Below, one piece after another: positions 11,963 to 50,127 of a stretch of 64,000 nt of DNA; position 1 is the first letter of the stretch; the number at the start of each line of letters is the position of its first letter. The notes beneath the pieces are model-generated. The model searched no databases. It had not been told where the DNA came from and saw only the letters and a program-made list of their open reading frames with translations. Source of the stretch: Lachnospiraceae bacterium (GTDB taxonomy: Bacteria > Bacillota > Clostridia > Lachnospirales > Lachnospiraceae); assembly GCA_045117315.1 (NCBI GenBank), contig JBGUNJ010000204.1, forward strand, positions 4,378-68,377, in the 5' to 3' direction. The position numbers and the translations under genes are program-made.

Positions 11963-11982
11963 TGGAGGAATGAAACCGTAGA

Positions 11983-12679: not shown

Positions 12680-12726
12680 GGGCGCAAAACATGCCGGACG
12701 TAAAAGAGTCTCCGCGCAGCGCCCGA

Positions 12727-15366: not shown

Positions 15367-15388
15367 GTGTAACTGCCAGTCTCCCTGT

Positions 15389-32177: not shown

Positions 32178-32774
32178 ATGAATACAAACACCACACTTGA
32201 TTATTACAATAATAACGCGTATCGCTTCACAGCGGATACCCTGGATGTCGAATTCTCCGACATCCAGGACCATTTCCTTGCCGAATTGCAGCCCGGGGCA
32301 TTGATCCTTGATTTTGGTTGCGGTTCTGGCCGTGACAGCCGATATTTCCTTCAAAAAGGGTACAAAGTTGAAGCCTGCGACGGATCGGAAGAGATGGTGA
32401 AAACAGCAACCAAAAACGCGGGAATTCCTGTAAAGCAGATGTTGTTTTCTGAGCTGGATGAGCAGGAGCGGTTTGATGGGATTTTTGCCTGTGCTTCGAT
32501 TTTGCATGTGCCGTCAGCAGAGCTTCCGGACATTATCGGGAAGATGAAGAAAGCTGTGAAAAAGGGTGGCATTCTGTACATATCTTTTAAATACGGAACC
32601 TTTGAGGGGGTCCGCAATGGCAGGTATTTTACTGATCAGACAAAAGAGAGTCTCAAACAGATTCTTGATCAGGTCGGCGGACTAAACATTATCAGCACTG
32701 GAATTACAGGCGATGCCAGGCCGGGAAGAGAAGACGAGAAATGGCTGAATGTATTGCTTCGCAGGAGAGCTTGA
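32178..32774 (+). CDS. Class I SAM-dependent methyltransferase (small-molecule-type fold; no DNA-methyltransferase motif IV)
   Basis: ILDFGCGSGRDSRYF (motif I) and KVEACDGSEEM (motif II) are present. No (D/N/S)PPY or PC-Q motif is visible. Confidence 0.75.
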   Translation: MNTNTTLDYYNNNAYRFTADTLDVEFSDIQDHFLAELQPGALILDFGCGSGRDSRYFLQKGYKVEACDGSEEMVKTATKNAGIPVKQMLFSELDEQERFDGIFACASILHVPSAELPDIIGKMKKAVKKGGILYISFKYGTFEGVRNGRYFTDQTKESLKQILDQVGGLNIISTGITGDARPGREDEKWLNVLLRRRA

Positions 32775-35368
32775 ATAATACAATCGAATATTGTCAAAGC
32801 GAATTACTGAAACGGATTCAAGAAGACTGCGGACTGAAGCTGGCAGAAAACTATTACTATGATGAAAAGCATCACTCCGCAGTTCTGCTCTGTGATAAAA
32901 CCTGCGTCGTACTGGACTTTGATCTTTGCTCAGTCGATGAGAACACAGATAAGGTTTTTGACTACTCAAAATACTGCGAGATGCAGAATGCCTGGATGCT
33001 GTCCTCCGACAGATTATTCCGTTTCTATATTCCTGCGGAATCCTTTTCTGGGAAACCAGATTCATCTGATTCTACAGATTCCTCCCTGAAATCCTGTAGA
33101 ACAGATTTCATCCAGCCTGTCTGCGATGAAATCAACCATTGGCTGACCCTGGATCCCGGGAATATCGAGGTCAGTGATAACGGTGGATCATTTGATAAAG
33201 GGCATATTGATAATACTCCTCTTGAGAAGACATTCGAGGATTTATTTATTGATGCCTATGGTTATGATGCCTTGAATTATCTGCAGAAAGAGTACTCAAT
33301 ATCCCTTAATCAGGGAAGAAATGCTTTTGTTGATTATGTGATTGAGACTGCTGAAGGTACCTTTGCTGTAGAAGAAAACGGTGTTCGCTACCATCACCCA
33401 CAGATTATTCACTTGGCTGCTTACAGCAGACAACTGGAAAAGCAGAATACCCTAAGTCTTCTGGGATTCAAGACATACAGATTTTCTTTTGAAAACCTAC
33501 GATTCCGGGAGCAGGCAATCGACAGTATAAGGACCTTTTTCGGGCCGAAGAGCGGCTTCCGCAGTGCTCATCTGATTAAAGGTACAAGACCTTTCGCTCT
33601 CTATACCCATCAGGAGACCTTTCTGAAGGAAATGAATGAAGCCCGTGAAAATGGCATTACAACATCTTTGATTGTCAGTCCGACCGGTTCCGGAAAGTCT
33701 CAGATTGCGATTGAAGATATCAATGAGCTTCAGATAGAAGGCAAAATCAGCCGCGTACTGATTATGGTTCCGACCACCCGTATCCGTGAAGACTGGGAAA
33801 AGCGTCTTACTTCATACAGGGGTAAGCTCGATATTACCATTGATCTGTATAACAGATCCTTCCTGAGAAGGAGTGACACACCGCCGGATTATTATGATTA
33901 TCTGCTGTTTGATGAGGCGCAGCACGCGCAGGCGGCAAACTGTGCCAAGACCCTGCAGTTTTTTACCCCTAAATATCTGGTGGGCCTTACAGCAACTCCC
34001 GACCGCCTGGACCACAAAAAACTGGAAGATATCTTCGGCCATTACAAGACATCAATGACTCTGAAGGAAGCTATAGACAAGGATATTATCGCCAATATTC
34101 GCTGCTTCCGGCTTATATCCAATATCGATCTTTCCATGGTCCGTTATAACGGAAAAGATTATAACTATGCGGATCTGGAAAAAACTCTGATAGTGGAATC
34201 CCGCAACGAACTCATCGTAAAAACATTAAAGAAATACTTCTTCCCCAGAGAAGATTTCTATAAACAGGGGATACTGTTTTGTGTGAATGTAAGCCATTGT
34301 AAGAAGCTGGAAAAACTCATGACAGCTGCCGGATTTAAAGCGAAAGCTGTTTACGGCGGAAACAAGCACAATGACGAAATCTTTGAGAAATACGCGAACA
34401 GACAAACCCAGTTCCTTATATCCTGCCAGCTGATTTCGGAAGGGTGGGATTCCCCCCAGACCGAAGTGGTTGTCATGGCTCGTCCGACCCTGTCTAAGGT
34501 ACTCTACACACAGCAGATCGGACGCGGCGTCCGCAAATATCCTGGAAAAGAATGCCTCTATGTTATCGATGTGGTTGATAACTATGAAGGAAAGCTTTCC
34601 CCGATGAACTTCAATGCCCTGTTTGGACTGTCCCATTATTCGGATTTCATGGGCGTCAAAAACAATAACCATGACTATCTGTCAATCCTGGGACTGGACG
34701 AGACAGAGATTGCCATGCAGGAGATTGACATTCATACATTTGAAGAGAAATACAGCGGATATCTTTCTCCGGAGCAGGCAGCACGAGAACTCTTCATCGG
34801 CACTGCAACCATCATGAGCTGGTACAGAAAAGACAATTCCATCAGCTCCCTGCAACTTCCGATCGGATCACGCATGGTTCCGTATTTTTCTGAGGACGAC
34901 ATAGAAATAATCCGTGAAAGTCGCGGACTCGGACGTCACGATGACACAACTATCCTGAAAGACTTTGAAGATTTCATCGATGAAAACACACTGACATTCT
35001 CCTTCAAACTGATCTTCATGCTCAGCATGCTGAAACTGGCGGACAAGGAGGGCGAGGTCAATATCGATGACCTGATCAACGAATACCGTTCATTTTACGT
35101 TGACAGGATTGAACGAGGACTGCCGGTTGACAGACCAAATTGTGCGTATACAAAAGAATTCCTCGATGATCTTGTCAAAGTAAAAAGATCGATCCTGACA
35201 AACCCATTTGAAAAGTTTGAGCGCAAACGCTTTGTCTATTATTCAAAGGACCTGAACATGCTGTCCTTCCATCCGGCACTGTGGGAGCAGATGACGAAGG
35301 AGAAGAAACAAGTGATCAGGGAGAAGGAAGAACGGTTTTTGGAAGAGTATTATGAGAAGATTGGGTAA
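32741..35368 (+). CDS. SF2 DEAD/DEAH-box (type III restriction Res-like) helicase with an N-terminal DUF559/Vsr-like nuclease fold and a C-terminal extension
   Basis: Nuclease-like VDYVIETAEGTFAVEENGVRYHH...GFKTYRFSFENL, then SPTGSGKS (motif I), LLFDEAQHA (II), GLTATP (III) and QQIGRGVR (VI). The start overlaps the methyltransferase gene by 34 nt. Confidence 0.8.
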   Translation: MAECIASQESLNNTIEYCQSELLKRIQEDCGLKLAENYYYDEKHHSAVLLCDKTCVVLDFDLCSVDENTDKVFDYSKYCEMQNAWMLSSDRLFRFYIPAESFSGKPDSSDSTDSSLKSCRTDFIQPVCDEINHWLTLDPGNIEVSDNGGSFDKGHIDNTPLEKTFEDLFIDAYGYDALNYLQKEYSISLNQGRNAFVDYVIETAEGTFAVEENGVRYHHPQIIHLAAYSRQLEKQNTLSLLGFKTYRFSFENLRFREQAIDSIRTFFGPKSGFRSAHLIKGTRPFALYTHQETFLKEMNEARENGITTSLIVSPTGSGKSQIAIEDINELQIEGKISRVLIMVPTTRIREDWEKRLTSYRGKLDITIDLYNRSFLRRSDTPPDYYDYLLFDEAQHAQAANCAKTLQFFTPKYLVGLTATPDRLDHKKLEDIFGHYKTSMTLKEAIDKDIIANIRCFRLISNIDLSMVRYNGKDYNYADLEKTLIVESRNELIVKTLKKYFFPREDFYKQGILFCVNVSHCKKLEKLMTAAGFKAKAVYGGNKHNDEIFEKYANRQTQFLISCQLISEGWDSPQTEVVVMARPTLSKVLYTQQIGRGVRKYPGKECLYVIDVVDNYEGKLSPMNFNALFGLSHYSDFMGVKNNNHDYLSILGLDETEIAMQEIDIHTFEEKYSGYLSPEQAARELFIGTATIMSWYRKDNSISSLQLPIGSRMVPYFSEDDIEIIRESRGLGRHDDTTILKDFEDFIDENTLTFSFKLIFMLSMLKLADKEGEVNIDDLINEYRSFYVDRIERGLPVDRPNCAYTKEFLDDLVKVKRSILTNPFEKFERKRFVYYSKDLNMLSFHPALWEQMTKEKKQVIREKEERFLEEYYEKIG

Positions 35369-35622: not shown

Positions 35623-36133
35623 AAAAGATTAGCTACAATCGTACCAAGGGCACTTATGGCAGCGCCACATTTACGGAGAAAAGAACAGCGACTATTCACG
35701 CACTTACAGATAAAGAAGAATGTGCAGGATTATAGCTTTGCCGACGGCTATGCAAAGGAAACAGTGTAGAACGCCGTATGGTCGAGGATATGGATCTAAC
35801 GGAAGAAAATCTGCATCTCTACCAAGTTGTCGAAGGGAATCTACATGCCGACACCTGTGGGAAATAATCTTCTCCGTCTGGTCCATTGCCTTCAACATAT
35901 GGTCAGGGAAGCATATCTTCTTTATTGCCGAACCAAAAGGCACTATGGAGACGCTGTACATCAAGCCCATAGAACAGGCCAAAATCAATTGTGTAAAGAA
36001 GCTGTTTGCAGACCTCTACGCAGTAGACATGGTTTACCGTAATGTGGACAGCTGCCAGAGTCTGTTTAACATCATGGAGAGTTGCAACAAAGAACTAGAA
36101 AGGATAATACTATGGCGCAGCATATTACTGTAA
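35623..36133 (+). pseudogene. Frameshifted remnant of the 3' end of a type III-like restriction enzyme Res subunit
   Basis: Fragments in two frames resemble a Res C-terminal nuclease region. These are IYMPTPVGNN then (frameshift) FSVWSIAF, then GKHIFFIAEPKGTMETLYIKPIEQAKINCVKKLF, compared with the TPxGxYxPDWAI ... YFVxETKG ... KIxCxxxHF layout recalled from memory. Stops interrupt the upstream sequence. Confidence 0.45.
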
Positions 36134-39100
36134 GAGTCCCGTGGCACGATGATGGATGGAAGGGAACGGTCTGCCAGAATCCATCTTCTAACATGGCTTG
36201 TTTACGACTGAAAAACATCCACGAGAATCGTAATGACGTAGTTGAGTGTAAGCTCTGCGGGCAGGGGATGATAGAACATGAACGTGACATTCCCTGCATA
36301 GAAGAGGGTGCTGCTTTTATGTGCGATCATGAGCTTCATAAAATGACTGTGCATCCTTATAAGAAGAGCAATCCGGACACACATGGTCATTTTTTGGAAA
36401 CGGAACTAATCTTTCCTGCGTATTCCTTCCCTGCCAGACCATTTTCCTGGCTTATGCGGGATAATTTGAAGAAGAGAGCGGAATTCTATGGCATCAACTA
36501 TAGACCGGAAATCGAACCTGAACTGAAATTTAAGACAATCTGGGTACAGGCAGCAGACAATCACAGGGCTGTCTTTGATTACTTTTATAAAGATGTTGTT
36601 CCAGATACTTCACTGTGCATAGCGTATGCTAAGCAGGTCCCATTTGTTGAGGATCACCGCCGAGTGATTATCGGAATGGGACATGTAAAAAAAATAGTTC
36701 CTGCTATTGAGCACAGGCATACAGAAGAAGGCGTTCTTCGCTCCATGATCTGGGACACGATGGTGTGTCATTCGATTAGAGACCATCATAATAACGGTTT
36801 TGTTATTCCATATCAGGAAATGATGAAATATGCGGAGGAGCATCCCGAATTTGATCTTACCTCTATTGTTGTTTTTGCGCCAGAAGATGCATTTGACGAG
36901 TTTTCTTATGCAACGGAACATGTCAGTCATGATGCTGTAATTGATGTGATTTTGTCATGTATTAACTCTTTCAGAATCATTCAGAAATGTCTGGATGAAG
37001 ACTATACCAATGTGCTTTCATGGCTGAATAGTCAATTGGACACTGTTTGGAAAGACCGGGGTCCTTTTCCTGGATTAGGGCCTGTTCTGACTGCTTTTGG
37101 AATTAAATTAGGAATCCCTATGGCAAAAGAAATCAGGGAGCAGATGCAGAAAACAGACGATTACTGGGGGTATCTCGATAGAGTAATCGCCCAACCGGAA
37201 AGCTATCTTTCCAAAGAGATTGCTTCAACGGTAACACCTATCATCCAAAAGACATGGAAAGATCTTAAAAGAATTAGAAAAGAATACCTCAAACTTCTCT
37301 GCCGCTTCTCTTTAAATATTGATCAGGCAAATGCTCTTTACGATCAGAATACGCGGGAGAATGAACAGATACATTGCACAGACCTAGAGATTCTTGAAAA
37401 CCCTTACCTGCTCTATGAAAAAATGAGATTGAAGCAGGATGCCCTATATCTTTCTGTACAGAAAGTAGACCGCGCAATCTTTCCTGTTCCCTCCATTTCC
37501 GAGAAGTACCCTCTGCAAGCTCCTTCAAAGTTGCAGTCGGATAATGATGAACGTCGTGTCAGGGCAGTTGTCATTTCTGTCCTGGAAGCTGCTGCAGACA
37601 GCGGACATACATTTTTGCCCTGTAATATTGCCGTGAAGCATGTACAGGAGCTTACTCTTGATCCAGCCTGTCCAGTCACTTCAGATATGATTTCTGCAAT
37701 TGAAGCATTTATGTCCTTGGAAATCATCAAACGTGAGATGAAAAACGGAGATGAGTATTATAAACTTGTTCGTCTAAATGTGTTTGACCACGAGATAGAG
37801 CGTCGCATCAAAAAAAGGATGAAGGCAAAAAAGATTGACGTACAGGCAGACTGGAGGCAGATGCTGGATAAAAAATTTGATGGACTAGGTGCTGGAAAGC
37901 CTGGTTCTAATCTGGAAGATATGGCTAGGGCAGAAAAAGCAGAAGCCTTAAAAGTTCTTGCAGAATCACGTCTGTCTGTTCTGATCGGTGACGCAGGAAC
38001 CGGAAAAACTACTGTCTTGTCTGTTCTGTGTAGCCATCCGGATATTGCAGCAGGTGGCGTGTTGTTGCTTGCACCCACCGGTAAAGCAACAGTACGGCTT
38101 GTTGAAAGCGTTGGAACTGGTGGGCAGAAATTCACCGCATTAAACGTAGCCCAGTTTCTGATCAAAAGCCATCGTTTTGACTGGAAGAATTTCCGATACA
38201 GGCTTTCAAATGAAAACTATACGGATCTCCCGGAAACGGTGATTGTAGACGAAGCTTCCATGCTGACAGAAGAAATGTTCGGAGCATTGATTCAGGCAGT
38301 CGGGACCGTAAAACGTATTGTTTTCGTTGGAGATCCAAACCAGCTTCCTCCCATTGGTGCAGGAAAACCCTTTGTAGATCTTGTAAATCTCCTCAAAGAA
38401 GACCTTCCAGAGATACAACCTCTGGATCAGCCGCGGGTTGCCCCTTGCTTCGCTGAATTGAGAATCAACCGAAGACAACAGCTGAAACAGCAGATTGAGG
38501 AAGAACGGCTTGATGTGAGCCTTTCACATTGCTTCACCCGCTCCGAGAACCTGGAAGATGATGAAGGAATTATCTCCGAGATTGTGAAAGGGACAAGCGA
38601 AGAGATACAAATCCTTCATTGGGAATCTGGAGAAGAACTGGAAAGCAAATTGCTTCACATAGTGGCAAAAGAATTGCAGATGAAAGATCCAGATGATCAG
38701 GATGGCTTTAATCGTGCTATGGGTGCCAAAGTACTTGAATATGAAACCTTTTTTAATAAGGAATGCGTAGAATATGTGAATAAGTGGCAGATTCTCGCGC
38801 CTATTCGGAACATGCCCCAGGGTGTGATAAATATGAACAGGCTCTTTCATCAGAAATATCGAGGTCGTCAGCTTGAACTCTCACGGCGCACAGGTTATAA
38901 AAAGAAGATTCCAGTTGCTTATGGATCCGAGGAAATTGTTTATGGAGATAAGGTCATAAATGTAATCAATTCCAAAAAAATTGCATTCCCTAAGGATTCC
39001 TCCGCGAATAACTATGTTGCAAATGGAGAAATCGGTATTGCCTGCGGTAGCTATGCCAAGAAAAATCAAAAGGCAAATAATTATTTGAATGTGTGTTTTT

Positions 39101-39837
39101 CTTCTCAAAAAGGATTCACCTATTCATACGAGAAAAAGGACTTCAACGACGAGACCGGTTCAGAAAGCCTGGAACTCGCTTATGCCCTAACTGTCCATAA
39201 AGCGCAGGGAAGCCAGTTCGATACCGTAATCCTCGTCTTAGCAGAACCATGCAGGATCATTTCCCGTGAGCTCCTGTATACTGCACTCACGAGACAGAAG
39301 GATAAGATTATCATTTTGTATAATCAGGAGCCGTATCATCTAATGAAATATTCCTCTGATGTTCATTCGGATATTGCCAAAAGATTCACGGATCTCTTTG
39401 CTGATGTATTTACAGATGATGATGGTGCTCACAGACCTAAGTACACAAAAGTTGGAGACACCTTCTACGATGAGAATCTGATTCACAAAACTGCCCGTGG
39501 AGAACTTGTACGCACTAAATCTGAAGTCATTATTGCAAACGCGCTTTTCTATAATGATCTAACCTATGAATATGAACCAAAATTGATTCTGGATGGTCAT
39601 GTTAAGCGTCCTGATTTTAAAATCATCGATGCAGACACTGGTGACATTTGGTACTGGGAACACTGCGGATTGATGTCCGATAAACGTTACGTGAAGCGTT
39701 GGGCGGATAAAGAACAGTTTTATGCAAAACATGGAATTGTGCGCGGCAAGAACCTGATTGTCACTGAAGAAAAAGCAGGAGAAGGAATAGAATCCGATAA
39801 GATTGATGCACTTATAAAAGAGGTTTTTGATCTCTAA
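36112..39837 (+). CDS. Large RecD/Dda-like SF1 helicase with a Cys-rich N-terminal domain and a C-terminal PD-(D/E)xK nuclease domain
   Basis: GDAGTGKTT (Walker A, 37987-38013), LLLAPTGKA, VIVDEASML, VFVGDPNQLPPIG and YALTVHKAQGSQFDTVILVL are present. The C-terminal RTKSEVIIANALFYNDLTYEYEP...KRPDFKIID...IWYWEHCG is nuclease-like. The N-terminus is ITVRVPWHDDGWKGTVCQNP..NMACLRL. ATG 36112 is preceded by gaaagga. Confidence 0.85.
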   Translation: MAQHITVRVPWHDDGWKGTVCQNPSSNMACLRLKNIHENRNDVVECKLCGQGMIEHERDIPCIEEGAAFMCDHELHKMTVHPYKKSNPDTHGHFLETELIFPAYSFPARPFSWLMRDNLKKRAEFYGINYRPEIEPELKFKTIWVQAADNHRAVFDYFYKDVVPDTSLCIAYAKQVPFVEDHRRVIIGMGHVKKIVPAIEHRHTEEGVLRSMIWDTMVCHSIRDHHNNGFVIPYQEMMKYAEEHPEFDLTSIVVFAPEDAFDEFSYATEHVSHDAVIDVILSCINSFRIIQKCLDEDYTNVLSWLNSQLDTVWKDRGPFPGLGPVLTAFGIKLGIPMAKEIREQMQKTDDYWGYLDRVIAQPESYLSKEIASTVTPIIQKTWKDLKRIRKEYLKLLCRFSLNIDQANALYDQNTRENEQIHCTDLEILENPYLLYEKMRLKQDALYLSVQKVDRAIFPVPSISEKYPLQAPSKLQSDNDERRVRAVVISVLEAAADSGHTFLPCNIAVKHVQELTLDPACPVTSDMISAIEAFMSLEIIKREMKNGDEYYKLVRLNVFDHEIERRIKKRMKAKKIDVQADWRQMLDKKFDGLGAGKPGSNLEDMARAEKAEALKVLAESRLSVLIGDAGTGKTTVLSVLCSHPDIAAGGVLLLAPTGKATVRLVESVGTGGQKFTALNVAQFLIKSHRFDWKNFRYRLSNENYTDLPETVIVDEASMLTEEMFGALIQAVGTVKRIVFVGDPNQLPPIGAGKPFVDLVNLLKEDLPEIQPLDQPRVAPCFAELRINRRQQLKQQIEEERLDVSLSHCFTRSENLEDDEGIISEIVKGTSEEIQILHWESGEELESKLLHIVAKELQMKDPDDQDGFNRAMGAKVLEYETFFNKECVEYVNKWQILAPIRNMPQGVINMNRLFHQKYRGRQLELSRRTGYKKKIPVAYGSEEIVYGDKVINVINSKKIAFPKDSSANNYVANGEIGIACGSYAKKNQKANNYLNVCFSSQKGFTYSYEKKDFNDETGSESLELAYALTVHKAQGSQFDTVILVLAEPCRIISRELLYTALTRQKDKIIILYNQEPYHLMKYSSDVHSDIAKRFTDLFADVFTDDDGAHRPKYTKVGDTFYDENLIHKTARGELVRTKSEVIIANALFYNDLTYEYEPKLILDGHVKRPDFKIIDADTGDIWYWEHCGLMSDKRYVKRWADKEQFYAKHGIVRGKNLIVTEEKAGEGIESDKIDALIKEVFDL

Positions 39838-39877
39838 ACAGCAGACGGAACAGGTTAAAAGGAAAGAAATAGAGAAG

Positions 39878-42800
39878 ATGGATGAGAAATATATCGTAAA
39901 TACAATAAACACATTTCTTCATGCTTCAGCCAGTAGTCTTTGCGCCTGGCTTGAGAAAAGACTGCCCTGCGTGTCTGATACATGGTGGGAAGATTGTGTT
40001 CTTGGGAGCTTAAGTCCCTTGCAGCGTGAAAACATACAGAATATGGGATACAGCAAGCTTTCAGAACTTAGTCTCTCGGAATTACTTCGTATTACCAATA
40101 AGTCATGGTATGACATCTGTACGGTGGCTGAACTCCCATCTTCTCTGCGTGAACTAGTGCGAGATATGATCTCGGTATGTAACAACTGGTCATATTCTGT
40201 AAGCACGATTCCAGGTAAAGATATAATTATTTCGGATCTTCATATAATTTCTTCTTTTATAGACGCGATAGGTGAAGGAACTGCTAAAAATAAGGAAATT
40301 GCAGAACTGATAGAGGAAATAGAAAAGCCAGACAGTTTGAAATCGGTTCGAAGAAGTACCGGTAGTTTCGAAAATGAAAGCGGGCAGTCGTCAGCCGATT
40401 CTGCAGAAGATGAGATAAAGGAAAACAGCCTTATATATCTTGTCTCAGATCCAAACGTCAAAGGAGTGGTCCGATCCATTAAAGACCTAGGCAGTATCAA
40501 AAAATATGTGGTTTTCATCAGCAATGATGTAGGAAGTCAAGTTTTTTACTCCGGGCAGATTGCACTTGTCAGAGAAAGTACTGCTTATAATTGGGTGAGT
40601 GCGGACACGGTCAGAAGTTTTCTGGCTGCATACCAAATAAAATATCCTTCTTCACAAAATCTATATTCGCTCAATTCCGCAAAAATTGATTTTGTACCAT
40701 ACCAGTTCAGACCGGCATTGAAGATGATCCATGCGGATGAACCTCGAATACTGATCGCTGACAGCGTTGGTGTCGGCAAAACGATTGAGGCTGGTCTGAT
40801 CATAAAGGAATTGGAGGCAAGAAATGATATACAGAGTATTGTAGTCATATGCCCACGGCCATTAGTTGCTGAGGGAAAATGGAAAATGGAGATGGAACGC
40901 TTCGATGAAGGCTTTTCATCCCTGGATGGAGCGACATTCAGGCAAATATTGTCTGATACTGATCGTGACGGTGAGTGGCCATCTCAATATAACAAAGTCA
41001 TCATTCCATATTCGATAATGGACAGCCGTTCCTATGAAGGGGAAGAGCAGGGAAAAAAGAGATTATTTGGATTATCAGAACTATTTCCAGAACCACACTT
41101 TGACTTGGTAATTGTTGATGAGGCACATCATATACGAAACGGCAGCATGGAGAAAGAAAAAGCCTTTGCGTATAAGTGCACAAAATATTTTTGTGACCAT
41201 GCTGATGCAGTTGTCATGCTGACGGCAACCCCTTTGCAAACCGGAGACAAGGATTTGTTCACGTTACTGAATGTCCTGCGTCCTGACATAATTATCGACG
41301 AGCAGACATTCCAGGTTATGAGCAAACCGAATGAATACATTTCGAGGGCAGCTCATTGCATTCGAACTGCAGAGTATAATTGGGCAAAAATGGCTATAAA
41401 GGAACTGCTGGGAGTTCGAAAAACACAGTGGGGCGATAATGTCATATCCGAAAATCCGCTCTATGACAGTATCCTACAAAGGCTGGAAAAACATGACATT
41501 ACAAGAGAAGAACGCGTCAGGCTGATTTCTGATGTAGAATCCTTGCATAGCTTTTACACCCTGATCAACAGGACCAGACGCCGTGATATTCAGGATTTTT
41601 GTATTCGCAGAACATTTACCTATGAAGTTGCTTTCACGGAATATCAGCAGGATCTGCATGACGAACTGCTTGAGTTTGAAAAGAATGCGCTGTCCATACT
41701 TCACGATCCGCGGGGCGTTTCTTTTATGATGTCAACGATTAAAAGACAGGCTGCAAGCTGCATTTTTGGACTTGGACCTCATATTCGAGGAATTCTTGAA
41801 AGAAGAATCCGGCAGATGAATGATGATCCTGATTTGGATTATGACTTTATCAATCTTGATGCCGCAGCAACAGACCGTCTGTCTCAGACTGCAAAACGGG
41901 TTCTGGACCTTGCAGAAAACCTTCCGGAAGAAGATCCAAAGTTTGATGAATTGATAAAAATCATCGAGGTGAAATATCAACTCGAAAACAATAAGATTAT
42001 GTTATTCAGTACCTTTCGTCATACGCTTGCATATTTGAAAAAGAGGCTGAAGAATCTTGGATATAGGGTTGAGCAGATTGACGGAAGTGTTAAGGATGAT
42101 ATCCGATTCGCATATAAAGAAAGGTTTCAACTGAGTAAAAACGAACCAGATGCAATTGATATCCTTCTATTTACAGAAGTAGGTTCAGAGGGGCTTGACT
42201 ATCAGTTTTGTGACACCATGATCAACTATGATCTGCCATGGAACCCTATGCGGATTGAGCAGAGAATAGGCAGAATAGATCGGCGTATGCAGAAAAGTGA
42301 AGCTGTAAACATTTATAATATTATCACGGAGAATACTGTCGATGCCGTAGTCTATCATAGATGTCTTGAAAGAATAGGCGTATTTGAACGTAGTATAGGT
42401 GAATGTGATGCAATATTAGGTGAAATAGCGGCTGGCATCGAGATTATTATGATGGACAATTCCCTAACGGATGAAGAACGAAAGATAAAGTTAGAGCAGA
42501 TGGCTGACAATGAAGTCAGAAAGATGCAGGAACTTGAAAAACTGGAGGAAGAAGAAAAGGATTTACTTGGATTCGATTTTTCTGAAATTGGGACTGCACA
42601 GGAAATCAAACATGCGGAAAATCCCTGGCTGACACAAAGAAACCTTCGGCGCCTGGTAGAACAGTATCTGAAAGAAAGACTTGGGGAGGGACCCTATATA
42701 CTGGGATCTTCTTCAATTAATACATTGCGGCTTTCTGCACAAGCCCGGAAGCTGATACGGGAAGACTTGTATAGGCTCTCTGGAAGGGGAAAGCATGCAC

Positions 42801-43483
42801 ACACAATATGGGATGCTTATTTGGGTGGAAAAAAGCCAACTATTCCAATCACATTCGATTCAGAAGCGGCAGCAAAGGCCAGGGACAATTCTACAATATT
42901 TGTGACTCCCATGCATCCCCTTGCACGTCAGGCTGCGGATTTGCTCACCAAGAGTTCAACGATGCAGTTGTGCCTGCATCTCTATTCTGACAAAATTCCT
43001 GCAGGACAGTATTTGTATTCAGTATATGCATGGAGATATGCCGGTTTTAACTCATACACACGAATTATTACAGTTTGTGAGAATGAAGAAATTGAATCTG
43101 AGTTGCCTGACATTCTAGAGGATTCAACCGAATATCCTATCGGGTCTTCAAATGCATTTGACTGGACGGGCTTGGAACTTCGCCATGTGATGAAGTGGCA
43201 GAATGCTGTTGCAGACTATCAGAGACGTATTAATACATCTAAAGCCTTTAAGTTAGAAACTCTTTCCAATAACTACAGGAATCAGATGAGATCCCTTGAG
43301 CGAAAAATTAACGTTGCTGCCAATGATTCCATAAGACGTATGTATATGAGCGAAATGGATAATATATCAGATATGTTTGAAAAGAAGAAAATAGAAATCG
43401 AGCAGACTAGGGCAGAAATTTACACGAATATACTGGTCAATGGTGTAGTTAGAGTCTCAGAGGAGATAGAGAGTCATGCTTAG
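39878..43483 (+). CDS. SNF2-family (RapA/HepA-like) helicase with a ~290-aa N-terminal extension
   Basis: ADSVGVGKTIEAGLIIKEL (motif I, from 40760), VIVDEAHHIRN (II, 41117-), MLTATPLQ (III) and LFTEVGSEGLDYQFCDTMINYDLPWNPMRIEQRIGRIDRRMQ (V-VI) are present. ATG 39878 is preferred over the TTG at 39827 in the ORF track. Confidence 0.85.
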   Translation: MDEKYIVNTINTFLHASASSLCAWLEKRLPCVSDTWWEDCVLGSLSPLQRENIQNMGYSKLSELSLSELLRITNKSWYDICTVAELPSSLRELVRDMISVCNNWSYSVSTIPGKDIIISDLHIISSFIDAIGEGTAKNKEIAELIEEIEKPDSLKSVRRSTGSFENESGQSSADSAEDEIKENSLIYLVSDPNVKGVVRSIKDLGSIKKYVVFISNDVGSQVFYSGQIALVRESTAYNWVSADTVRSFLAAYQIKYPSSQNLYSLNSAKIDFVPYQFRPALKMIHADEPRILIADSVGVGKTIEAGLIIKELEARNDIQSIVVICPRPLVAEGKWKMEMERFDEGFSSLDGATFRQILSDTDRDGEWPSQYNKVIIPYSIMDSRSYEGEEQGKKRLFGLSELFPEPHFDLVIVDEAHHIRNGSMEKEKAFAYKCTKYFCDHADAVVMLTATPLQTGDKDLFTLLNVLRPDIIIDEQTFQVMSKPNEYISRAAHCIRTAEYNWAKMAIKELLGVRKTQWGDNVISENPLYDSILQRLEKHDITREERVRLISDVESLHSFYTLINRTRRRDIQDFCIRRTFTYEVAFTEYQQDLHDELLEFEKNALSILHDPRGVSFMMSTIKRQAASCIFGLGPHIRGILERRIRQMNDDPDLDYDFINLDAAATDRLSQTAKRVLDLAENLPEEDPKFDELIKIIEVKYQLENNKIMLFSTFRHTLAYLKKRLKNLGYRVEQIDGSVKDDIRFAYKERFQLSKNEPDAIDILLFTEVGSEGLDYQFCDTMINYDLPWNPMRIEQRIGRIDRRMQKSEAVNIYNIITENTVDAVVYHRCLERIGVFERSIGECDAILGEIAAGIEIIMMDNSLTDEERKIKLEQMADNEVRKMQELEKLEEEEKDLLGFDFSEIGTAQEIKHAENPWLTQRNLRRLVEQYLKERLGEGPYILGSSSINTLRLSAQARKLIREDLYRLSGRGKHAHTIWDAYLGGKKPTIPITFDSEAAAKARDNSTIFVTPMHPLARQAADLLTKSSTMQLCLHLYSDKIPAGQYLYSVYAWRYAGFNSYTRIITVCENEEIESELPDILEDSTEYPIGSSNAFDWTGLELRHVMKWQNAVADYQRRINTSKAFKLETLSNNYRNQMRSLERKINVAANDSIRRMYMSEMDNISDMFEKKKIEIEQTRAEIYTNILVNGVVRVSEEIESHA

Positions 43484-46400
43484 AGAAATAAATGAATTGT
43501 ACGGAAATACTGACTGCAGAGATCTTGGATCCCGTCAACTGGAAGAGTTGAGGGATGGCTTAAAAAACGTTTCACCTGAAGAAATCAAATCGTCATCCGA
43601 TGGGATTATGTATATTAAGCTACTCCATATGTTCAGATTTGCGGTTGCGGAAAATGACAAGTTTCATGGGGAGAATTATCCAAGCCTCCTCAACTCTTTG
43701 CTATCAGTCGGAGAGGATGGACTATACTCTAACAATCTTCGTTTTATTTTTGAATTGATTCAGAATGTTGATGACTGCGATTATCCAAACTCTGAAAACT
43801 GTCGGCTTGATATGCAATTTCGATTTGATGAAGATGAGATTATCCTCACATATAATGAAGTTGGATTTACACCGTTTAACGTTTTTGCTATCACAGGAAT
43901 TGCAGAAGCTGCTAAGAATATTTCTTCTTCAAAAAATGAAATTGGTGAAAAGGGGATTGGATTCAAGTCGGTATTTGGCGTTGCTGATAAAGTCTTGATT
44001 CAAAGCGGCTGGTTTTCTTTTATTCTGAATAAAGAAAACTTTACAGTACCTATTTCAGCATATTCATCATCCTCCGATCCTTACATTGAGGGAACGAAAA
44101 TGACTCTGTATGTTCCCGGGAAAGCAAAGCTTATTTACAGTCAAATCAAAAACCAGTATTGCAAAAAAGAAGCAATCTTCAGTCGAAATCCACTGCTCTT
44201 TCTGAATAAGCTTACGTCTCTGAATATCTTCTTCGACGAATGGAGAAGAATGGAGTTTCATGTGTCTAAGAAAGCACATATGACAGAAGGCGGTATTCAC
44301 AGAGAGGACAATATACAGGTCTTTGTTGACCTGCATGATTATGATAACGGACGAGATACGAATGTAACAGAATCATTTATGTGTACCAGATATACCCTTC
44401 CTGTTACATACAGCAGGGAGGCTTGCCAGGCCCGCTATGGAGATAATACAAAGGTGGGTGAAAATGGCGGGAAAAGAATGCTGTTACAAGCGGTTCTTCC
44501 GACCCCGGAGCATGTTGCAGATGTCGGGAACGGATCATTATACTCTTTCCTCCCTACACAGCTGAAGCTGACTGTGCCGATTGTAATACATGTTCCCTTT
44601 AAGCTGGATGCGTCAAGAGAATTTGTTGATCCGCAGAATCATAATCGTTGGTTTCTTGAATCTTCACAGAAACTGTCAGAATTGATGGAGTATCTGTATA
44701 AAGACTGGTGTAAGACTGTTAGAAGTGACATTGTATTCTTTCTTCCAGGGGCCAGAGAGAGCCTGTTTGCTCCAAACAATGGGAAAGAAAAGTGTCTCAG
44801 TGATAACAAAGATTTCCAGGGGATTCATTTTTTGAAGATGCCTGTCTTTATAACAACAGACGATGAATACTGTCCCCATCAAGATGTTTTTTCTTTTAAC
44901 CCGGATGAAAATGTGATGGATCCGGAAAGAGTATACAAAATGCTTATGGTAGAGGAAAATCTTTTCCTGGTACCTGAAACAGTGAATCCAAGAAAATATG
45001 ATATAAAAATTTTTAAAGATGCAGCTAAGGAACTTCTGCAAAAGGCCATTTCCAACCCGAATGTGACAGAGGAAGCGCTTGAATATTTAGATAGTGTTTC
45101 ATATTTATATGGTCCAAAGGATATTCCTGACAACAAGCAGATTAGCCTGACATGCAGACAGATTGAGATCATTATGAAGCATGAACAGCTTGCGAAGATC
45201 TTTACAGAAGTAACCTGCAGGTTGCTGAAAATGCAAAAAAACATCCAAGTATCCATTGCTGATTTGAAGCCTGTTCCCATTCACAAAGCTGTTCAAGCGG
45301 GCTTTGATAAAAGTGAAACCCCAAAGCGTGTGGAAAGATACTTGGATAAAGTGAATTTGCAAAGTGTATGCTTGGATATTAAGGATAACCAGTATTTGCC
45401 TTGCAGTAACGGTCTTGTATTATCTATGGCAAATCCGACATCATCCTTAGCGTCTTTATGCTTTGCTGTTGATGAAAAGGATACATTTGCAATACGGATA
45501 AAGCTGAAAGAAGCTTCTGAACGCCTGAACCAATTTATTGAAGATGATGCAGGTTCTGCTGAGGATTATTTAAGAGAGCTTCGAAATATCAGGCTGACGG
45601 TTAGGGATTCTTTGGGTAATGAAGGCTACAAAAGCTATATAAATCTAATCCTCCGTTCGGGAACAGAGCGTAAACGTTTTATTCAGGAGCTTATCCAAAA
45701 TGCTGATGATTGTGTATACGATAAAGATATTATCCCAGCATTTTATTTACAACAGGATGGAAGCAAAGTTGTCACACAATATAATGAGGAGGGGTTTACC
45801 CGAGAGAACATCCGCTCTATTACAGCTATTGGGGAATCTACCAAAAACAGACTGCTCAAAGGGGAATATCAGACAATAGGCGAAAAGGGGGTTGGCTTTA
45901 AAACAGTCTTTGCTGTTGCATCTCAGATTAATATATTCAGTGGTGAATACAATTTCTCACTGACAGATGAGGCGCCTACAATTCCAAAGATTTATAAACG
46001 TACTGACCTTAGTAGAGTAGATGGTACAAGGATGGAGATTTTCCTGAAGGGAAACAGGAATATCATCGACTTTAATGAAAAAAACATACTTGAGCTCTGC
46101 CTTTGCCTGAGGCAATTAAAAGAAATCACAATTGGGCCCCACAAAATCAATATATCTGACACTGACGATACAAGAACATTGGTTATTGATGGAAGAAAAC
46201 AGGTATTTAGAAAGTTTGTACATAAGTTTGAAATTTCAGACCCAGATGCGATTAAGGAACGCGCAAGGGGTATGCATGTTGTTTTACCACAGCAGCAGAT
46301 TATTTGCTATGTTCCTGAACGGTTTGGCTCTCAGGAATATCATATTTACAGTGGGCTTCCGACAAGACATATGGTAAAGATCCCTGTTGCTTTCGATGCT

Positions 46401-48188
46401 CCTTTTGAGCTGACGACTTCCAGAGAGCAGATTGAAGAAGATTGCGAGGCATGGAATGGTCGTGTACGTCTGGAAATGTATAGGGCATTAAGGGAACTTA
46501 TTGTCTTTCTTCGAAATGAGCACAGAGTAGATATTCTTAGGCTTACCAGATATGTCCCCAGGTTGAAGGGAAAAATCAGAGAGTACGTGAATGATATTTT
46601 TGATAGCCCCTATTTGACCGGCTACAATTTTTTGGAAATCTTGAAAAACACCGAGATTTTACCAACTTATAATCACGATATATTTGAATCGGCAAACAGT
46701 GGACGAGCTCTGAGGTTTCCTGAAGTGGCACATTTCCTGTTTAAACAGGGCTGTTTTGGGGAGATTGACCCTTCTTCCGTTCTTGATATTAATTCAAAAG
46801 ATTATGAAGCGGCTATTAATGCGCTGGACTGTAAGTCTGCAATGTTTGATCAGGTATTTCCTTTGCTAATGATATACTCTGATAATTACGTACATGATAA
46901 AGAATATAGAACATTACTATATGAATATTTACAGGAATCACCTCATGAATATGCTGATCAGATAAAAAAACTTGCCATTATACCTGTATATGGAAATGTT
47001 CCAGATGCCACACGATTCGTGAAGTGGCAGCCGGACAAGATATTTGTCAAGAAAAATGTAAATAAATCAACGGATGATTATTTCATCTTAAACACGGATG
47101 AGCTTTCAAAAGCTTTCTGTGAAAGAATGTTAAATGTAAACATCAATGAGATGAATGATGAATGGGAACGTAGAAAATATGACGAGAAATTTAGAGCAAT
47201 CCTTGACTGGGAGGATGTAGAAGATATTTACAATATGCTTCTCTATGAATTCAAATATGGGAATGTGCGGAGAAACTATCCTTCCGGTCTACCAATGGAT
47301 TATAAGGAACGTATCCCCCTGAAAAACAGGAATGGGGTAATCGCCCGACAGCATCTGTTCCTCTGTCGGGAAGAAGTAGAATACTTCCCTGTAGCTATAG
47401 TTAAACAGATTACAGTAGCTGATGAATGTGCAAGGATGGCTGAATCAATTGGCAGTACTGATCTCTGTGATGTACATTATGAAGATTTTAATTACGACAA
47501 GCAGTTAGACGAAGATGATATTGAAGTTTTGATGGATGATTACTTTAATAATTCAGATGAGATTCTTAGAGGCTTTTATCAAGACGGGCTTCTGTCGGAT
47601 GAATTATTAGAAGAATATAACCTGAATTATCTGGCGAATAGTCGTGTAGATGACACTATGGATGATGAAGACTTTCCTAATGATCCTGTTTATAACAGAG
47701 AACAGCTGAGAAAGCACGTGAACAAGAAATTTGCTTCGCTGGTAAAAATAATTCCAATTGTTGTCGAAAGGACCGTTTATCGGGGGAAAGACCAAAGCGG
47801 AAATGTTTTTGATTTGCAAAACCGGGATACACGCGAAGGCGCGCTTCATATTTACGCATCATCTAAAAAGTATGGAATTTGTTTCTGCCAAATGTGCAAA
47901 AAGAGGAAGCCTAGCTCATTCATTGAGGTAAATAATCTTCAGATTTTACCCAAATACTATTTTCCTCAGATGAGAGTATCATTATGCCTTGAATGCAGTA
48001 AAATCTTCGAGGGCCTCCGTAAGAATGACTCCGTGCGAAAAGAGTATTTTAATTCGATAAAAAATCAAAAGATTGGAAACGAGGGAAACATTTGTGTTCC
48101 GATTGGTAATGACGAGTCATTAACCTTTACTGCTAAACACTTGGCTGAGATTCAAGAAATATTAAAAAGGTATGGGGATGATATTTAA
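43476..48188 (+). CDS. 1570-aa protein with two sacsin/MORC-like GHKL (Bergerat-fold) ATPase modules and a C-terminal Cys4 cluster
   Basis: There are two N-box-like motifs: RFIFELIQNVDDC (from about 43752) with GEKGIGFKSVFGVADKV, and RFIQELIQNADDC (from about 45687) with GEKGVGFKTVFAVASQI. The C-terminus has CFCQMCKK...CLECSKIF. The ATG overlaps the upstream stop by 8 nt, with gaggaga upstream. Confidence 0.8.
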   Translation: MLREINELYGNTDCRDLGSRQLEELRDGLKNVSPEEIKSSSDGIMYIKLLHMFRFAVAENDKFHGENYPSLLNSLLSVGEDGLYSNNLRFIFELIQNVDDCDYPNSENCRLDMQFRFDEDEIILTYNEVGFTPFNVFAITGIAEAAKNISSSKNEIGEKGIGFKSVFGVADKVLIQSGWFSFILNKENFTVPISAYSSSSDPYIEGTKMTLYVPGKAKLIYSQIKNQYCKKEAIFSRNPLLFLNKLTSLNIFFDEWRRMEFHVSKKAHMTEGGIHREDNIQVFVDLHDYDNGRDTNVTESFMCTRYTLPVTYSREACQARYGDNTKVGENGGKRMLLQAVLPTPEHVADVGNGSLYSFLPTQLKLTVPIVIHVPFKLDASREFVDPQNHNRWFLESSQKLSELMEYLYKDWCKTVRSDIVFFLPGARESLFAPNNGKEKCLSDNKDFQGIHFLKMPVFITTDDEYCPHQDVFSFNPDENVMDPERVYKMLMVEENLFLVPETVNPRKYDIKIFKDAAKELLQKAISNPNVTEEALEYLDSVSYLYGPKDIPDNKQISLTCRQIEIIMKHEQLAKIFTEVTCRLLKMQKNIQVSIADLKPVPIHKAVQAGFDKSETPKRVERYLDKVNLQSVCLDIKDNQYLPCSNGLVLSMANPTSSLASLCFAVDEKDTFAIRIKLKEASERLNQFIEDDAGSAEDYLRELRNIRLTVRDSLGNEGYKSYINLILRSGTERKRFIQELIQNADDCVYDKDIIPAFYLQQDGSKVVTQYNEEGFTRENIRSITAIGESTKNRLLKGEYQTIGEKGVGFKTVFAVASQINIFSGEYNFSLTDEAPTIPKIYKRTDLSRVDGTRMEIFLKGNRNIIDFNEKNILELCLCLRQLKEITIGPHKINISDTDDTRTLVIDGRKQVFRKFVHKFEISDPDAIKERARGMHVVLPQQQIICYVPERFGSQEYHIYSGLPTRHMVKIPVAFDAPFELTTSREQIEEDCEAWNGRVRLEMYRALRELIVFLRNEHRVDILRLTRYVPRLKGKIREYVNDIFDSPYLTGYNFLEILKNTEILPTYNHDIFESANSGRALRFPEVAHFLFKQGCFGEIDPSSVLDINSKDYEAAINALDCKSAMFDQVFPLLMIYSDNYVHDKEYRTLLYEYLQESPHEYADQIKKLAIIPVYGNVPDATRFVKWQPDKIFVKKNVNKSTDDYFILNTDELSKAFCERMLNVNINEMNDEWERRKYDEKFRAILDWEDVEDIYNMLLYEFKYGNVRRNYPSGLPMDYKERIPLKNRNGVIARQHLFLCREEVEYFPVAIVKQITVADECARMAESIGSTDLCDVHYEDFNYDKQLDEDDIEVLMDDYFNNSDEILRGFYQDGLLSDELLEEYNLNYLANSRVDDTMDDEDFPNDPVYNREQLRKHVNKKFASLVKIIPIVVERTVYRGKDQSGNVFDLQNRDTREGALHIYASSKKYGICFCQMCKKRKPSSFIEVNNLQILPKYYFPQMRVSLCLECSKIFEGLRKNDSVRKEYFNSIKNQKIGNEGNICVPIGNDESLTFTAKHLAEIQEILKRYGDDI

Positions 48189-48623: not shown

Positions 48624-49355
48624 ATGAAACTTGAACTAATTCAGACAAACATCGTCAATGTTTCAGCGGACGTGATTGTCCTGCCTGCCAATACAATGCT
48701 GAAGGAAGGAAGCGGTGCTTCCACTGCTATTTTCGAAGCTGCCGGACGCAGAAAACTCACCCAGGCATGTAAGAAGATTGGCTCGTGTCCGGCGGGAAGC
48801 GCGGTTCCGACATTGGCATTTAATCTGAATGCGAAATATATCATCCATGCAGTGGTTTCCAAATGGATCGACGGAAACCACGAAGAGTACGATCTGCTCA
48901 GCTCTGCTTATCTGTCTTCATTGAAAATTGCTGATGTTATGGGCTGCCAATCGATTGCATTTCCTCTGCTTGCTTCCGGGAATAATGGATACGATAAAGA
49001 ATTGGCATTTCAGATAGCAAAGGAAAGCATTGAATCTTTTGAAGGAAGCAGCCTGAAAAAAGCGGAACTTGTAGTCTATGGTTCCCGGATTACCGCGTGG
49101 CTCAGGGAACAGGGAAATGAAGTGATTGAAATTCCTGAAGATTTGGAAAAAGAGCGACAGAAGCAGGCTCATAAAGAGAAGGCAAAGCAATTTGCCGAAG
49201 AAGGAAAGGAAATAGCATATCGCTTCCTCGAAGACCAGATACAAAAAGGATTGGATTATCTGAAGGTGAAAGAAAACCGGGAAGAGCTTTTGAAGAAAGC
49301 CGTGAAAAATGTCAGAAAAGCAAAGAGTAAAAAAGAGAAGGAAAATATAAAATAA
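48624..49355 (+). CDS. Macro-domain protein with a K/E-rich C-terminal tail
   Basis: NIVNVSADVIVLPANTML..GSGASTAIFEAAG...AKYIIHAV...SIAFPLLASGNNGY matches the macro (ADP-ribose-binding/hydrolase) layout. RBS gagaggaag. Confidence 0.75.
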   Translation: MKLELIQTNIVNVSADVIVLPANTMLKEGSGASTAIFEAAGRRKLTQACKKIGSCPAGSAVPTLAFNLNAKYIIHAVVSKWIDGNHEEYDLLSSAYLSSLKIADVMGCQSIAFPLLASGNNGYDKELAFQIAKESIESFEGSSLKKAELVVYGSRITAWLREQGNEVIEIPEDLEKERQKQAHKEKAKQFAEEGKEIAYRFLEDQIQKGLDYLKVKENREELLKKAVKNVRKAKSKKEKENIK

Positions 49356-49425
49356 ACAATTATAGATAGAAACATCTGTGTCTGAAAAAATAAATATTAT
49401 TTTATTGAAGCTGGGACTTTACGAC

Positions 49426-50127
49426 ATGATTGATATATCTTTCGATTTCCGATCGGATTCAAAGGGCAGGGATCCTGATACCTATAGCCCGACATTAAAT
49501 GCATATCACAGAGCCCTGTGGAGCAAAGAGCTTCCTAACGGTCAGGTGATGGAGTTGCAATCGAAGAGCGCTCCTTTTGTCCTGAACTGGAGAGACTTCT
49601 ATTTCACAAGTGATACGATCATTGTTGAAATGAGTCATTCCAAGAACAGGAAGATCATGGACCGGGTATATGAACAGGTTGAGGACTTTGAGGAGTACTA
49701 TCAGCATCTGCTGCACAGGTCATATACAATTGGAAGCATGATTATATTCCCAGTGCATGCCAATAGCATGAACCAGAGAAGGGGAACAAATATCAAGATC
49801 TCTGACCGATGGGATCTGACCCTTGAGTGTATCCGCAGGCATTATGCCGGAGAGGAGAGTCCGCTTTCGAAAGTGATTGAAGCCGACAAGTCCTTCTATG
49901 ATTTATTTGTAGACTTCAAAGGATACGTGGATTTCTTTTTTCTCCAGGACTGCGTTTCGGAGGATTATTCTTCAGTCAATATATGGATGGGAGATGCATC
50001 CTTCGAGAAAAGCGGTTTACCGGATACTGTGAAAGAGTATTTGAACTTTCTCGTTAAGGAACATATCTTTTTGGATAAGCGAAACCGGAGGATTCAGGAA
50101 TACTGTATAACACACAAATTGCTTTGA
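49426..50127 (+). CDS. Conserved-looking hypothetical protein; start is ATG 49426 or GTG 49378
   Basis: ORF tightly following the macro gene, with MIDISFDFRSDSKGRDPDTYSPTLNAYHRALWSKELPNG... and ...ISDRWDLTLECIRRHY. I cannot name the family with confidence. Confidence 0.6.
   Translation: MIDISFDFRSDSKGRDPDTYSPTLNAYHRALWSKELPNGQVMELQSKSAPFVLNWRDFYFTSDTIIVEMSHSKNRKIMDRVYEQVEDFEEYYQHLLHRSYTIGSMIIFPVHANSMNQRRGTNIKISDRWDLTLECIRRHYAGEESPLSKVIEADKSFYDLFVDFKGYVDFFFLQDCVSEDYSSVNIWMGDASFEKSGLPDTVKEYLNFLVKEHIFLDKRNRRIQEYCITHKLL

Follow-up and report, generated by a model that had tools for sequence, protein, structure and literature searches.

We analyzed a block of three large genes, here called g1, g2 and g3, in a 64,000-nucleotide stretch of a Lachnospiraceae bacterium contig (JBGUNJ010000204.1, positions 4,378 to 68,377; the whole stretch is referred to below as the window). 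Our results favor the view that the locus is a predicted defense system, with a probability of about 0.8, and the best reading makes it a multi-gene variant within a known anti-phage family, Tiamat, and not an uncatalogued system. The conserved core is the g2-g3 pair, a putative SNF2 helicase and a putative GHKL ATPase, and g1, a putative helicase-nuclease, is facultative overall. A preliminary description of this DNA had put the block forward as an undescribed defense system that fits no named one. The trio as a whole is indeed not assigned to a named system, but g1 corresponds to PDC-S68 and g3 falls in the Tiamat (TmtA) family, and with two of the three parts in catalogued families the term undescribed is not supported as it was put.

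Results

Structure of the block

The three large same-strand open reading frames (ORFs) are present and intact at the places where they had been reported (Table 1), and so are their tight junctions. The g1 stop codon (TAA, 39835-39837) is followed by a 40-nt spacer before the g2 ATG at 39878, upstream of which lies a purine-rich ribosome-binding site (AAAGGAAAG); the g2 stop codon (TAG, 43481-43483) overlaps the g3 ATG at 43476 by 8 nt, with GAGGAG located 10 nt 5' of that ATG. No terminator-like site was found at the g1/g2 or g2/g3 junction in a scan with consensus patterns. The motifs previously read from the translations, namely superfamily 1 (SF1) helicase motifs in g1, an SNF2 set in g2 and two GHKL modules in g3, were all recovered by Pfam and by motif coordinates, and the three genes contain no DNA methyltransferase domain, as had also been noted. 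The 12.3-kb block gave no megablast match among all complete E. coli genomes.

The g3 protein, a double-module relative of TmtA

In Pfam g3 matches SACS twice as well as HATPase_c_3, in NCBIfam it matches P_loop_sacsin (3e-30), and sacsin ATP-binding models match both of its modules. The PADLOC TmtA model PDLC03972 was matched at 2.2e-70, where residues 75-408 align with positions 29-345 of 1302, i.e. the first module only and approximately a quarter of the profile; seven further TmtA models in PADLOC were matched as well. Over its full length g3 is collinear with SNF2-linked relatives of ~1500 amino acids (aa) (hhalign probability 99.3), which are strong TmtA matches themselves (1e-120 to 1e-147). 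These relatives have one canonical ATP-binding module, and the g3 family has two. Searched against the Protein Data Bank (PDB) with phmmer, g3 gave no match, and a profile search returned the N-domains of HSP90 and sacsin, a likeness at the profile level only. Judged by these models and alignments, g3 is a divergent member of the Tiamat (TmtA) family.

The ~560 aa C-terminal region of g3 (residues 1005-1570), modeled by AlphaFold2 (AF2) with a predicted local distance difference test score (pLDDT) of 87, is found in ~196 clusters at 50% identity among 1.84 billion representatives, mostly as the C-terminus of proteins of ~1550-1610 aa. Close to its end lies a motif common to all relatives, CQ[IM]C...LCxxC, which reads EVNN...LCLECS throughout the double-module family, and the window sequence has no HNH match. 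At the EVNN position an archaeal relative (Methanophagales, L053, 4974-9596), which lacks an SNF2 neighbor, displays EAHHI...LCHHHH and matches Pfam HNH_2 at 2e-4, and the SNF2-linked TmtA-like proteins show a weak HNH match at the same Cys4 site. The Cys4 motif of g3 looks like an HNH-derived zinc finger without its histidines. No nuclease family was matched in g3.

The g2 protein, a HEPN-SNF2 helicase

Pfam SNF2-rel_dom and Helicase_C match g2, and the helicase core is complete, with GVGKT at residues 298-302, DEAH at 414-417 and QRIGRIDR at 795-802. The PADLOC DrmD model PDLC02623 is matched at 6e-110, the NCBIfam DrmD model at 296 bits against a cutoff of 610, and NCBIfam RapA at 7e-57; RapA is also the closest relative with a solved structure (5e-34 against PDB), and the PADLOC HmaA match (8e-46) covers shared helicase domains only. 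Taken together, g2 is a RapA/DrmD-like helicase of the SNF2 class whose N-terminus is a HEPN domain of the Swt1 type. The HEPN_Swt1 model is weak in g2 (0.007), reaches E<=1e-5 in several homologues and is weak in others. The HEPN Rx4H motif reads (V/I)RN(N/R)W(A/S)H in ~36 of the 42 HEPN-bearing g2 relatives, and both of its catalytic positions are replaced in the window, by C and Y (VCNNWSY), and in a sister block described below, by W and F (VWNNWAF). The HEPN domain itself is kept in the window, and between window and sister block the nonsynonymous substitution rate (dN) is 0.31 in this domain versus 0.11 in the SNF2 core. Loss of the HEPN arginine was also seen in unrelated lineages (L017, L023/L034/L035 and L070), in some of them together with the histidine, and Poribacteria carry versions of the g2-type helicase without a HEPN domain.

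Linkage of the three genes across genomes

Homologous loci were gathered by conserved peptide patterns, taking the best 80 matches, in a g3-centered scan of one genome per GTDB species (79 loci) and a g1-centered scan of metagenome contigs (80 loci), and all fractions below are indicative only. Among close loci with enough upstream DNA, g2 lies directly 5' of g3 in 22 of 23, the remaining one being permuted. Of the 38 distant TmtA-like loci, 22 have g2 next to the GHKL gene, 7 have an SNF2 gene that is split or lies nearby, and 9 have no SNF2 gene. The gap between g2 and g3 is typically 1-8 nt in near-full-length pairs, with some pairs overlapping and others spaced up to ~100 nt apart, and the pairs include GHKL proteins merely 25-30% identical to g3. 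Distant pairs were found in Poribacteria, Desulfobacterales, Chloroflexota, Terriglobia, Cloacimonadales and the archaeon Methanoculleus. Such tight pairing across phyla indicates that the g2-g3 pair is an old, widespread and translationally coupled unit.

The complete g1-g2-g3 block recurs at 80/72/69% aa identity in two other contexts, where it keeps the junction spacing of the window (a 37-nt gap and an 8-nt overlap). One copy, the sister block (L164-166), lies beside ZorAB-like genes and transposases, and the other (L167-169) beside a pair of reverse transcriptase and SLATT genes and a HEPN-DUF499 gene. The three genes also occur in rearranged form: as g3-g1-g2 in L009, with an overlap between the g3 stop and the start of g1; as g2-g1-g3' in L130; as g2-g3'-g1 in L084, L085 and L170-172, the last of these (g1 at 71% identity) consisting of a ResIII helicase, a HEPN-SNF2 protein, a single-module sacsin protein and g1; as g1-methylase-ResIII-g2-g3' in L092 (1319-14356); and in a g2-g3-g1-like order in the proteobacterium L082, with g1 at 28% identity. 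A sacsin-type GHKL gene adjoins g1 in 8 of the 9 informative independent loci with a g1 at least 55% identical. Across the loci the neighbors include type I restriction-modification (R-M) genes, GmrSD, Abi_2, PemK, integrases, Zorya-like genes, and reverse transcriptase with SLATT.

That the genes keep occurring together in varied orders, and that the block has moved between contexts, speaks for a functional link and against adjacency by chance. Compared with the sister block, dN is 0.13 for g1, 0.19 for g2 and 0.23 for g3 (dN alone is reported since the synonymous rate, dS, is saturated), and all three genes are under constraint. Homologues of the three genes co-localize elsewhere, among neighbors typical of defense islands, and the trio stands as a conserved and mobile block; what does not stand is the trio as the general unit, since the core is the g2-g3 pair and most pairs have no g1.

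Some of these loci showed further features. The insert in L092 consists of an N6_N4 DNA methylase (956 aa) and a ResIII protein (929 aa) and resembles a type III R-M pair. In L137 (146-13696), which has no SNF2 gene, two single-module sacsin-type proteins (1187 and 1149 aa) and a 938-aa SF1 helicase accompany a g1 homologue (59%). In L084 the g1 homologue is directly followed by a 1212-aa protein with TPR and PIN domains, of the PIN-TPR-GreABC type (11823-15461).

The g1 protein, a member of PDC-S68

The PADLOC model PDC-S68 (PDLC05065) matches g1 end to end (E=0, 1510.9 bits; residues 2-1239 against 5-1219 of 1221). Pfam AAA_30, AAA_19 and UvrD_C_2 cover residues 608-1070, the NCBIfam RecD2 and RecD models match below cutoff, and the PDB entry of RecD2, 3e1s, is matched at 1.6e-23. 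The C-terminal 155 residues contain a conserved series, TKSE...YE...RPDF...WEHxG...K, in which E, D and E-H do not vary among 16 relatives that are 35-63% identical (alignment A5). All Pfam matches of this region are to PD-(D/E)xK families: TPD in 5 of 16 members (best 0.005), DUF790 (0.0011) and TnsA_N (0.21); a profile of the domain gave no match among PDB sequences. We therefore regard g1 as a RecD-like SF1B helicase with a predicted PD-(D/E)xK-like nuclease at its C-terminus, much as had been proposed, with the motifs present and the nuclease family matches weak. Residues 1-600 contain a Cys/His-rich beta-region and are modeled at a pLDDT of 67; a PUA/EVE-like match for this N-terminus (2hd9) had a probability of 0.08 and was discarded. 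With PADLOC, Nhi, Gabija and Mokosh gave weak matches to the helicase core or none, and these identities were rejected for g1. Stand-alone and linked copies of g1 share one architecture and align over their full length at identities as low as 25-30%.

Table 1. Genes of the block, their motifs and the neighboring genes, in window coordinates.
Feature	Coordinates	Strand	Description
ResIII/Helicase_C protein	32741-35368		875 aa
Res fragment	35720-36133		137 aa; type III restriction Res C-terminal endonuclease fragment; Pfam RE_endonuc
g1	36112-39837	+	1241 aa from ATG 36112; ORF 36082-39837
g1 Walker A	37987-38010	+	GDAGTGKT, residues 626-633; nearly invariant in alignments A2 and A4
g1 nuclease-like motifs	39514-39669	+	TKSE 1135-1138, RPDF 1166-1169, WYWEHCG 1180-1186
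g2	39878-43483	+	1201 aa from ATG 39878; ORF 39827-43483
g2 degenerate HEPN motif	40175-40195	+	VCNNWSY, residues 100-106; alignment and motif scan
g3	43476-48188	+	1570 aa; ORF 43476-48188
g3 GHKL module 1	43752-43967	+	ELIQNVDD 93-100, GEKGIGFK 157-164; invariant in alignment A1
g3 GHKL module 2	45687-45902	+	ELIQNADD 738-745, GEKGVGFK 802-809; invariant in alignment A1
g3 Cys4 motif	47886-47996	+	CQMC...EVNN...CLEC; AF2: beta-hairpin, strand, helix
Macro-domain gene	48624-49355	+	243 aa; Pfam Macro 6.5e-28

The island and the neighboring genes

The block was said to lie in an A+T-rich island, and the GC profile confirms this, with a GC content of ~0.38-0.44 across 30-50 kb versus ~0.52 in the flanks. 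The low-GC stretch is bordered by ABC transporter and capsule genes and, on the other side, by BspA-type leucine-rich repeat and patatin genes. Over the window (1-64000) the cumulative GC skew climbs almost steadily and nearly all long ORFs are on the + strand, which is consistent with a leading-strand position in a Firmicute-like genome; no tRNA genes were found in the window.

Part of the defense neighborhood that had been described was recovered, namely the ResIII helicase, the restriction-enzyme fragment and the Macro-domain gene. The HNH endonuclease was not found: two unassigned upstream ORFs gave zinc ribbons only or no match. The best PADLOC matches of the 875-aa ResIII helicase are type IV methyl-directed restriction enzymes (3e-31), and its start overlaps the gene of a 198-aa methyltransferase by 34 nt. 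As possible counterparts we considered the ResIII helicases found ahead of the SNF2 gene in L085 and L170, but no meaningful similarity to them was seen, and we take the 875-aa protein as the product of a separate, restriction-like gene. The 137-aa Res fragment shares 44% identity with the C-terminal end of a Res-like protein of 1023 aa in L104. It overlaps the g1 start by 22 nt and so looks like what is left of a gene that gave way when the block inserted.

Homologues of the Macro-domain gene lie directly after g3 in L026 (9804-10244) and L033 (14691-15131), and directly after the g1 homologue in L085 (13705-13932). With the window included, the gene thus recurs next to a GHKL gene or a g1 homologue in four independent loci; it is a possible accessory component, and it may provide an ADP-ribose-linked accessory step.

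Two further neighbors were noted. The 198-aa class I S-adenosylmethionine methyltransferase (32178-32774), located 3.3 kb 5' of g1, matches PADLOC mad2 at 3.6e-20 through its SAM-binding domain, and a 49%-identical homologue lies just 3' of the GHKL gene in a Phascolarctobacterium metagenome-assembled genome (L031, 14242-14784); its link to the block could be a coincidence or a loose association. A DUF6994 gene (49378-50127; Pfam 3.7e-80) starts 22 nt after the Macro-domain gene, and no homologue of it was present in the related loci examined.

Discussion

Comparison with known systems

The 2022 'expanded arsenal' study (PMC13223576) counts Tiamat among its anti-phage systems, and a preprint describes it as a single gene with a PD-(D/E)xK domain (bioRxiv 10.1101/2024.10.26.620412). 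In its 2022 preprint form the Tiamat study neither mentions the system by name nor gives its domains, and no paper on its mechanism was found in the literature searched. A stand-alone gamma-proteobacterial TmtA without an SNF2 neighbor (L040, 9905-14821; PADLOC 2e-221) contains a NOV_C domain of the restriction endonuclease (REase) fold, in agreement with that PD-(D/E)xK description. The g3 protein shares the sacsin/HSP90-type GHKL N-terminal module with TmtA, and both are found in defense islands. However, g3 has two ATPase modules where the TmtA-like relatives have one, it has no detectable NOV_C or PD-(D/E)xK nuclease of its own, and it is paired with an SNF2 helicase gene, joined here by the helicase-nuclease g1 as well. 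Likewise, g1 resembles PDC-S68 in its end-to-end profile match and in the architecture shared with stand-alone relatives, but g1 here and its closest clade lie within a multi-gene block with SNF2 and GHKL genes. PDC-S68 is named in no paper of the literature searched.

The pairing of a GHKL ATPase with an SNF2-family helicase and nucleases recalls the MORC/paraMORC systems. Iyer, Abhiman and Aravind (2008; PMC2292703) predicted conflict systems of MORC/paraMORC GHKL proteins with superfamily 2 (SF2) helicases, including SWI2/SNF2, in R-M-like operons, and they also described GHKL proteins with an REase domain in cis as stand-alone genes (paraMORC3). The GHKL-SNF2 adjacency measured here adds to that likeness, whereas that paper neither mentions sacsin-type modules nor describes a HEPN fusion, a doubled GHKL module or a RecD-like partner, and the window block lacks a DNA methylase. 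A sequence-model likeness also exists to eukaryotic sacsin, since SACS/sacsin models match both g3 modules, and sacsin combines repeated HSP90-like modules with a HEPN domain (PMC3710099). Its HEPN domain, however, belongs to a different HEPN family and is on the same polypeptide, and sacsin has been described as a chaperone; a 2013 HEPN survey and a 2021 eLife paper treat sacsin in eukaryotic contexts only.

The exclusion of DISARM, Zorya and Hma in the preliminary description was sound, as their partner genes are missing. The helicase core of g2 is closest to the DrmD models of class 1 DISARM and to RapA structures, but g2 lies under the NCBIfam DrmD cutoff and carries the N-terminal HEPN domain, and no DrmA, DrmB (DUF1998), DrmC (PLD), DrmMI or methylase match was found among the neighbors. 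For Hma, the block contains no DNA methylase and g3 has no HmaC match at E<=0.01. For Zorya, the window neighbors gave no match to the MotAB-like ZorA/ZorB, and the ZorAB-like genes beside the sister block L164 form a separate adjacent locus. Similar to Nhi, g1 joins an SF1 helicase and an REase-like nuclease on one polypeptide; unlike Nhi, it has the nuclease at the C-terminus and a 600-aa N-terminus without a detected homologue, and it gave no Nhi match at E<=0.01.

In the literature searched we found no relevant paper combining GHKL, SNF2, phage and helicase, no description of the tight HEPN-SNF2/TmtA pairing or of a doubled GHKL module, and none of the recruitment of PDC-S68 into an operon with the accompanying loss of HEPN and HNH-like residues.

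Proposed mechanism

We consider it reasonably probable, at a lower level than the defense assignment itself, that the locus encodes a three-component, ATP-driven system built on a Tiamat-family core and directed at phage or mobile-element DNA; the gene structure, the domains, the intact ATPase motifs, the conserved linkage, the movement as a block and the defense-island contexts are observed, and the complex formation, the DNA target, the division of labor and the defense phenotype in this model are what we infer. The core would consist of the g2 SNF2 translocase and the g3 GHKL ATPase with its two ATP-binding modules, and the translational coupling of the two genes suggests that the proteins are probably produced at a constant ratio and assemble into a complex. 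If g3 behaves like MORC and other GHKL clamps, ATP binding would cause it to close on DNA, and by analogy with RapA and the MORC/paraMORC-helicase systems, g2 would translocate on or remodel DNA or nucleoprotein. The role of nuclease effector would fall to g1, through 5'-3' SF1B unwinding and cleavage or degradation of the target DNA. Since both the HEPN Rx4H motif and the HNH-like site are degenerate in this sub-clade, g1 is left as the sole predicted catalytic nuclease, and its nuclease-like motif is intact, as are the Walker A, the DEAH and both N-boxes. Judging from domain content, the GHKL core is constant in the family and the nuclease varies, being an REase or HNH domain in cis or a HEPN domain on the helicase. 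With no methylase in the conserved block, discrimination by host modification is not indicated.

Alternative explanations

The reading of the three genes as one system should be taken with some caution, since several observations weigh against it. PADLOC treats PDC-S68 as a single-gene candidate. Most g2-g3 pairs have no g1 within 10 kb (g1 is present in 4 of the 79 g3-centered loci), and ~45-49 of the ~55 full-length g1 relatives (25-46% identity) have no g2 or g3 within the same distance, so that each module can exist without the other; the sample of loci is itself biased by the pattern-based collection and the restriction to the best 80 matches. At the level of domains, the family matches of the g1 nuclease domain are all sub-threshold, the N-terminal 600 residues of g1 have no family match and no PDB fold match (best Foldseek E=0.73), and no PDB fold was found for residues 1005-1570 of g3 (best Foldseek E=0.47). 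Finally, the loss of HEPN and HNH-like residues could be partial decay.

The separate existence of the modules, together with the full-length PDC-S68 match and the identical architecture of stand-alone and linked g1 copies, is what would be expected if two independent systems, a single-gene PDC-S68 and an SNF2/TmtA-like pair, lay side by side with no mechanistic coupling and maybe additive effects. We regard this as unlikely, because g1 has been inserted between g2 and g3' in L130 and between g3 and g2 in L009, with the start/stop overlap, and occurs with the pair in at least five orders and down to 28% identity (L082). Moreover, g1 copies of the closest clade nearly always come with the pair, the three genes move between contexts as one block, and after the loss of the HEPN residues the g2-g3 pair itself would have no predicted nuclease.

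That same loss bears on whether the g2-g3 module in the window is a decaying remnant, non-functional, with g1 alone active if anything. VCNNWSY in place of VRNNWAH, EVNN/LCLECS in place of EAHH/LCHHHH and the higher dN of the HEPN segment (0.31) than of the SNF2 core (0.11) point in that direction. On the other side, the three ORFs are intact over 12 kb with all ATPase motifs preserved, dN against the sister block is held at 0.13-0.23 with dS saturated, and identical proteins were found in a second, independently assembled sample. EVNN is invariant across the double-module family and thus represents a conserved state and not recent decay, and we give the remnant explanation scarcely any weight. 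Hardly more probable is a non-immune module for DNA transactions or chromosome or transcription maintenance (replication, repair, silencing) that travels on mobile elements. RapA, the closest solved relative of g2, is an RNA-polymerase recycling factor, the GHKL relatives of eukaryotes compact chromatin (MORC) or serve as a chaperone (sacsin) according to established knowledge and PMC2292703, and the block has no self/non-self marker such as a methylase. Such a role fits poorly with a patchy phyletic distribution consistent with horizontal transfer, with variable flanks rich in R-M, Abi, toxin-antitoxin, Zorya-like and reverse-transcriptase genes, and with relatives that carry HEPN, HNH or REase nuclease domains; PADLOC, in addition, scores the family as defense, by models derived from validated Tiamat and from enrichment in defense islands.

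Wider significance

With a multi-gene defense system on a Tiamat-family core as the preferred reading, a broader idea can be put forward tentatively, as one that may well prove wrong: the Tiamat family would basically be a coupled machine of HEPN-SNF2 helicase and sacsin-type GHKL protein with an interchangeable nuclease, be it an REase or HNH domain in cis, a HEPN domain on the helicase or a RecD-like helicase-nuclease encoded separately, and the window would hold a three-motor variant (SF1, SF2 and doubled GHKL) in which the two built-in nuclease sites are lost and PDC-S68 is an obligate effector. If true, the coupled two-gene form would be the commonest and widest-spread form of Tiamat, present in bacterial phyla and archaea, PDC-S68 would be both a stand-alone gene and, in this clade, a plug-in effector, and the bacterial sacsin-type modules that pair with HEPN would become a candidate source of eukaryotic sacsin.

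If most Tiamat relatives use a dedicated SNF2 translocase, the family would represent a helicase-plus-GHKL-clamp machine, nearer to MORC-type clamps and to systems with an SNF2 protein such as DISARM. The three-gene variant is a natural experiment: it has lost both internal nuclease-type sites and gained a separate helicase-nuclease, and the sensor or motor can thus be separated from the effector by genetic means. It would also link the PADLOC single-gene candidate PDC-S68 to partners, a link that gene-by-gene annotation would miss.

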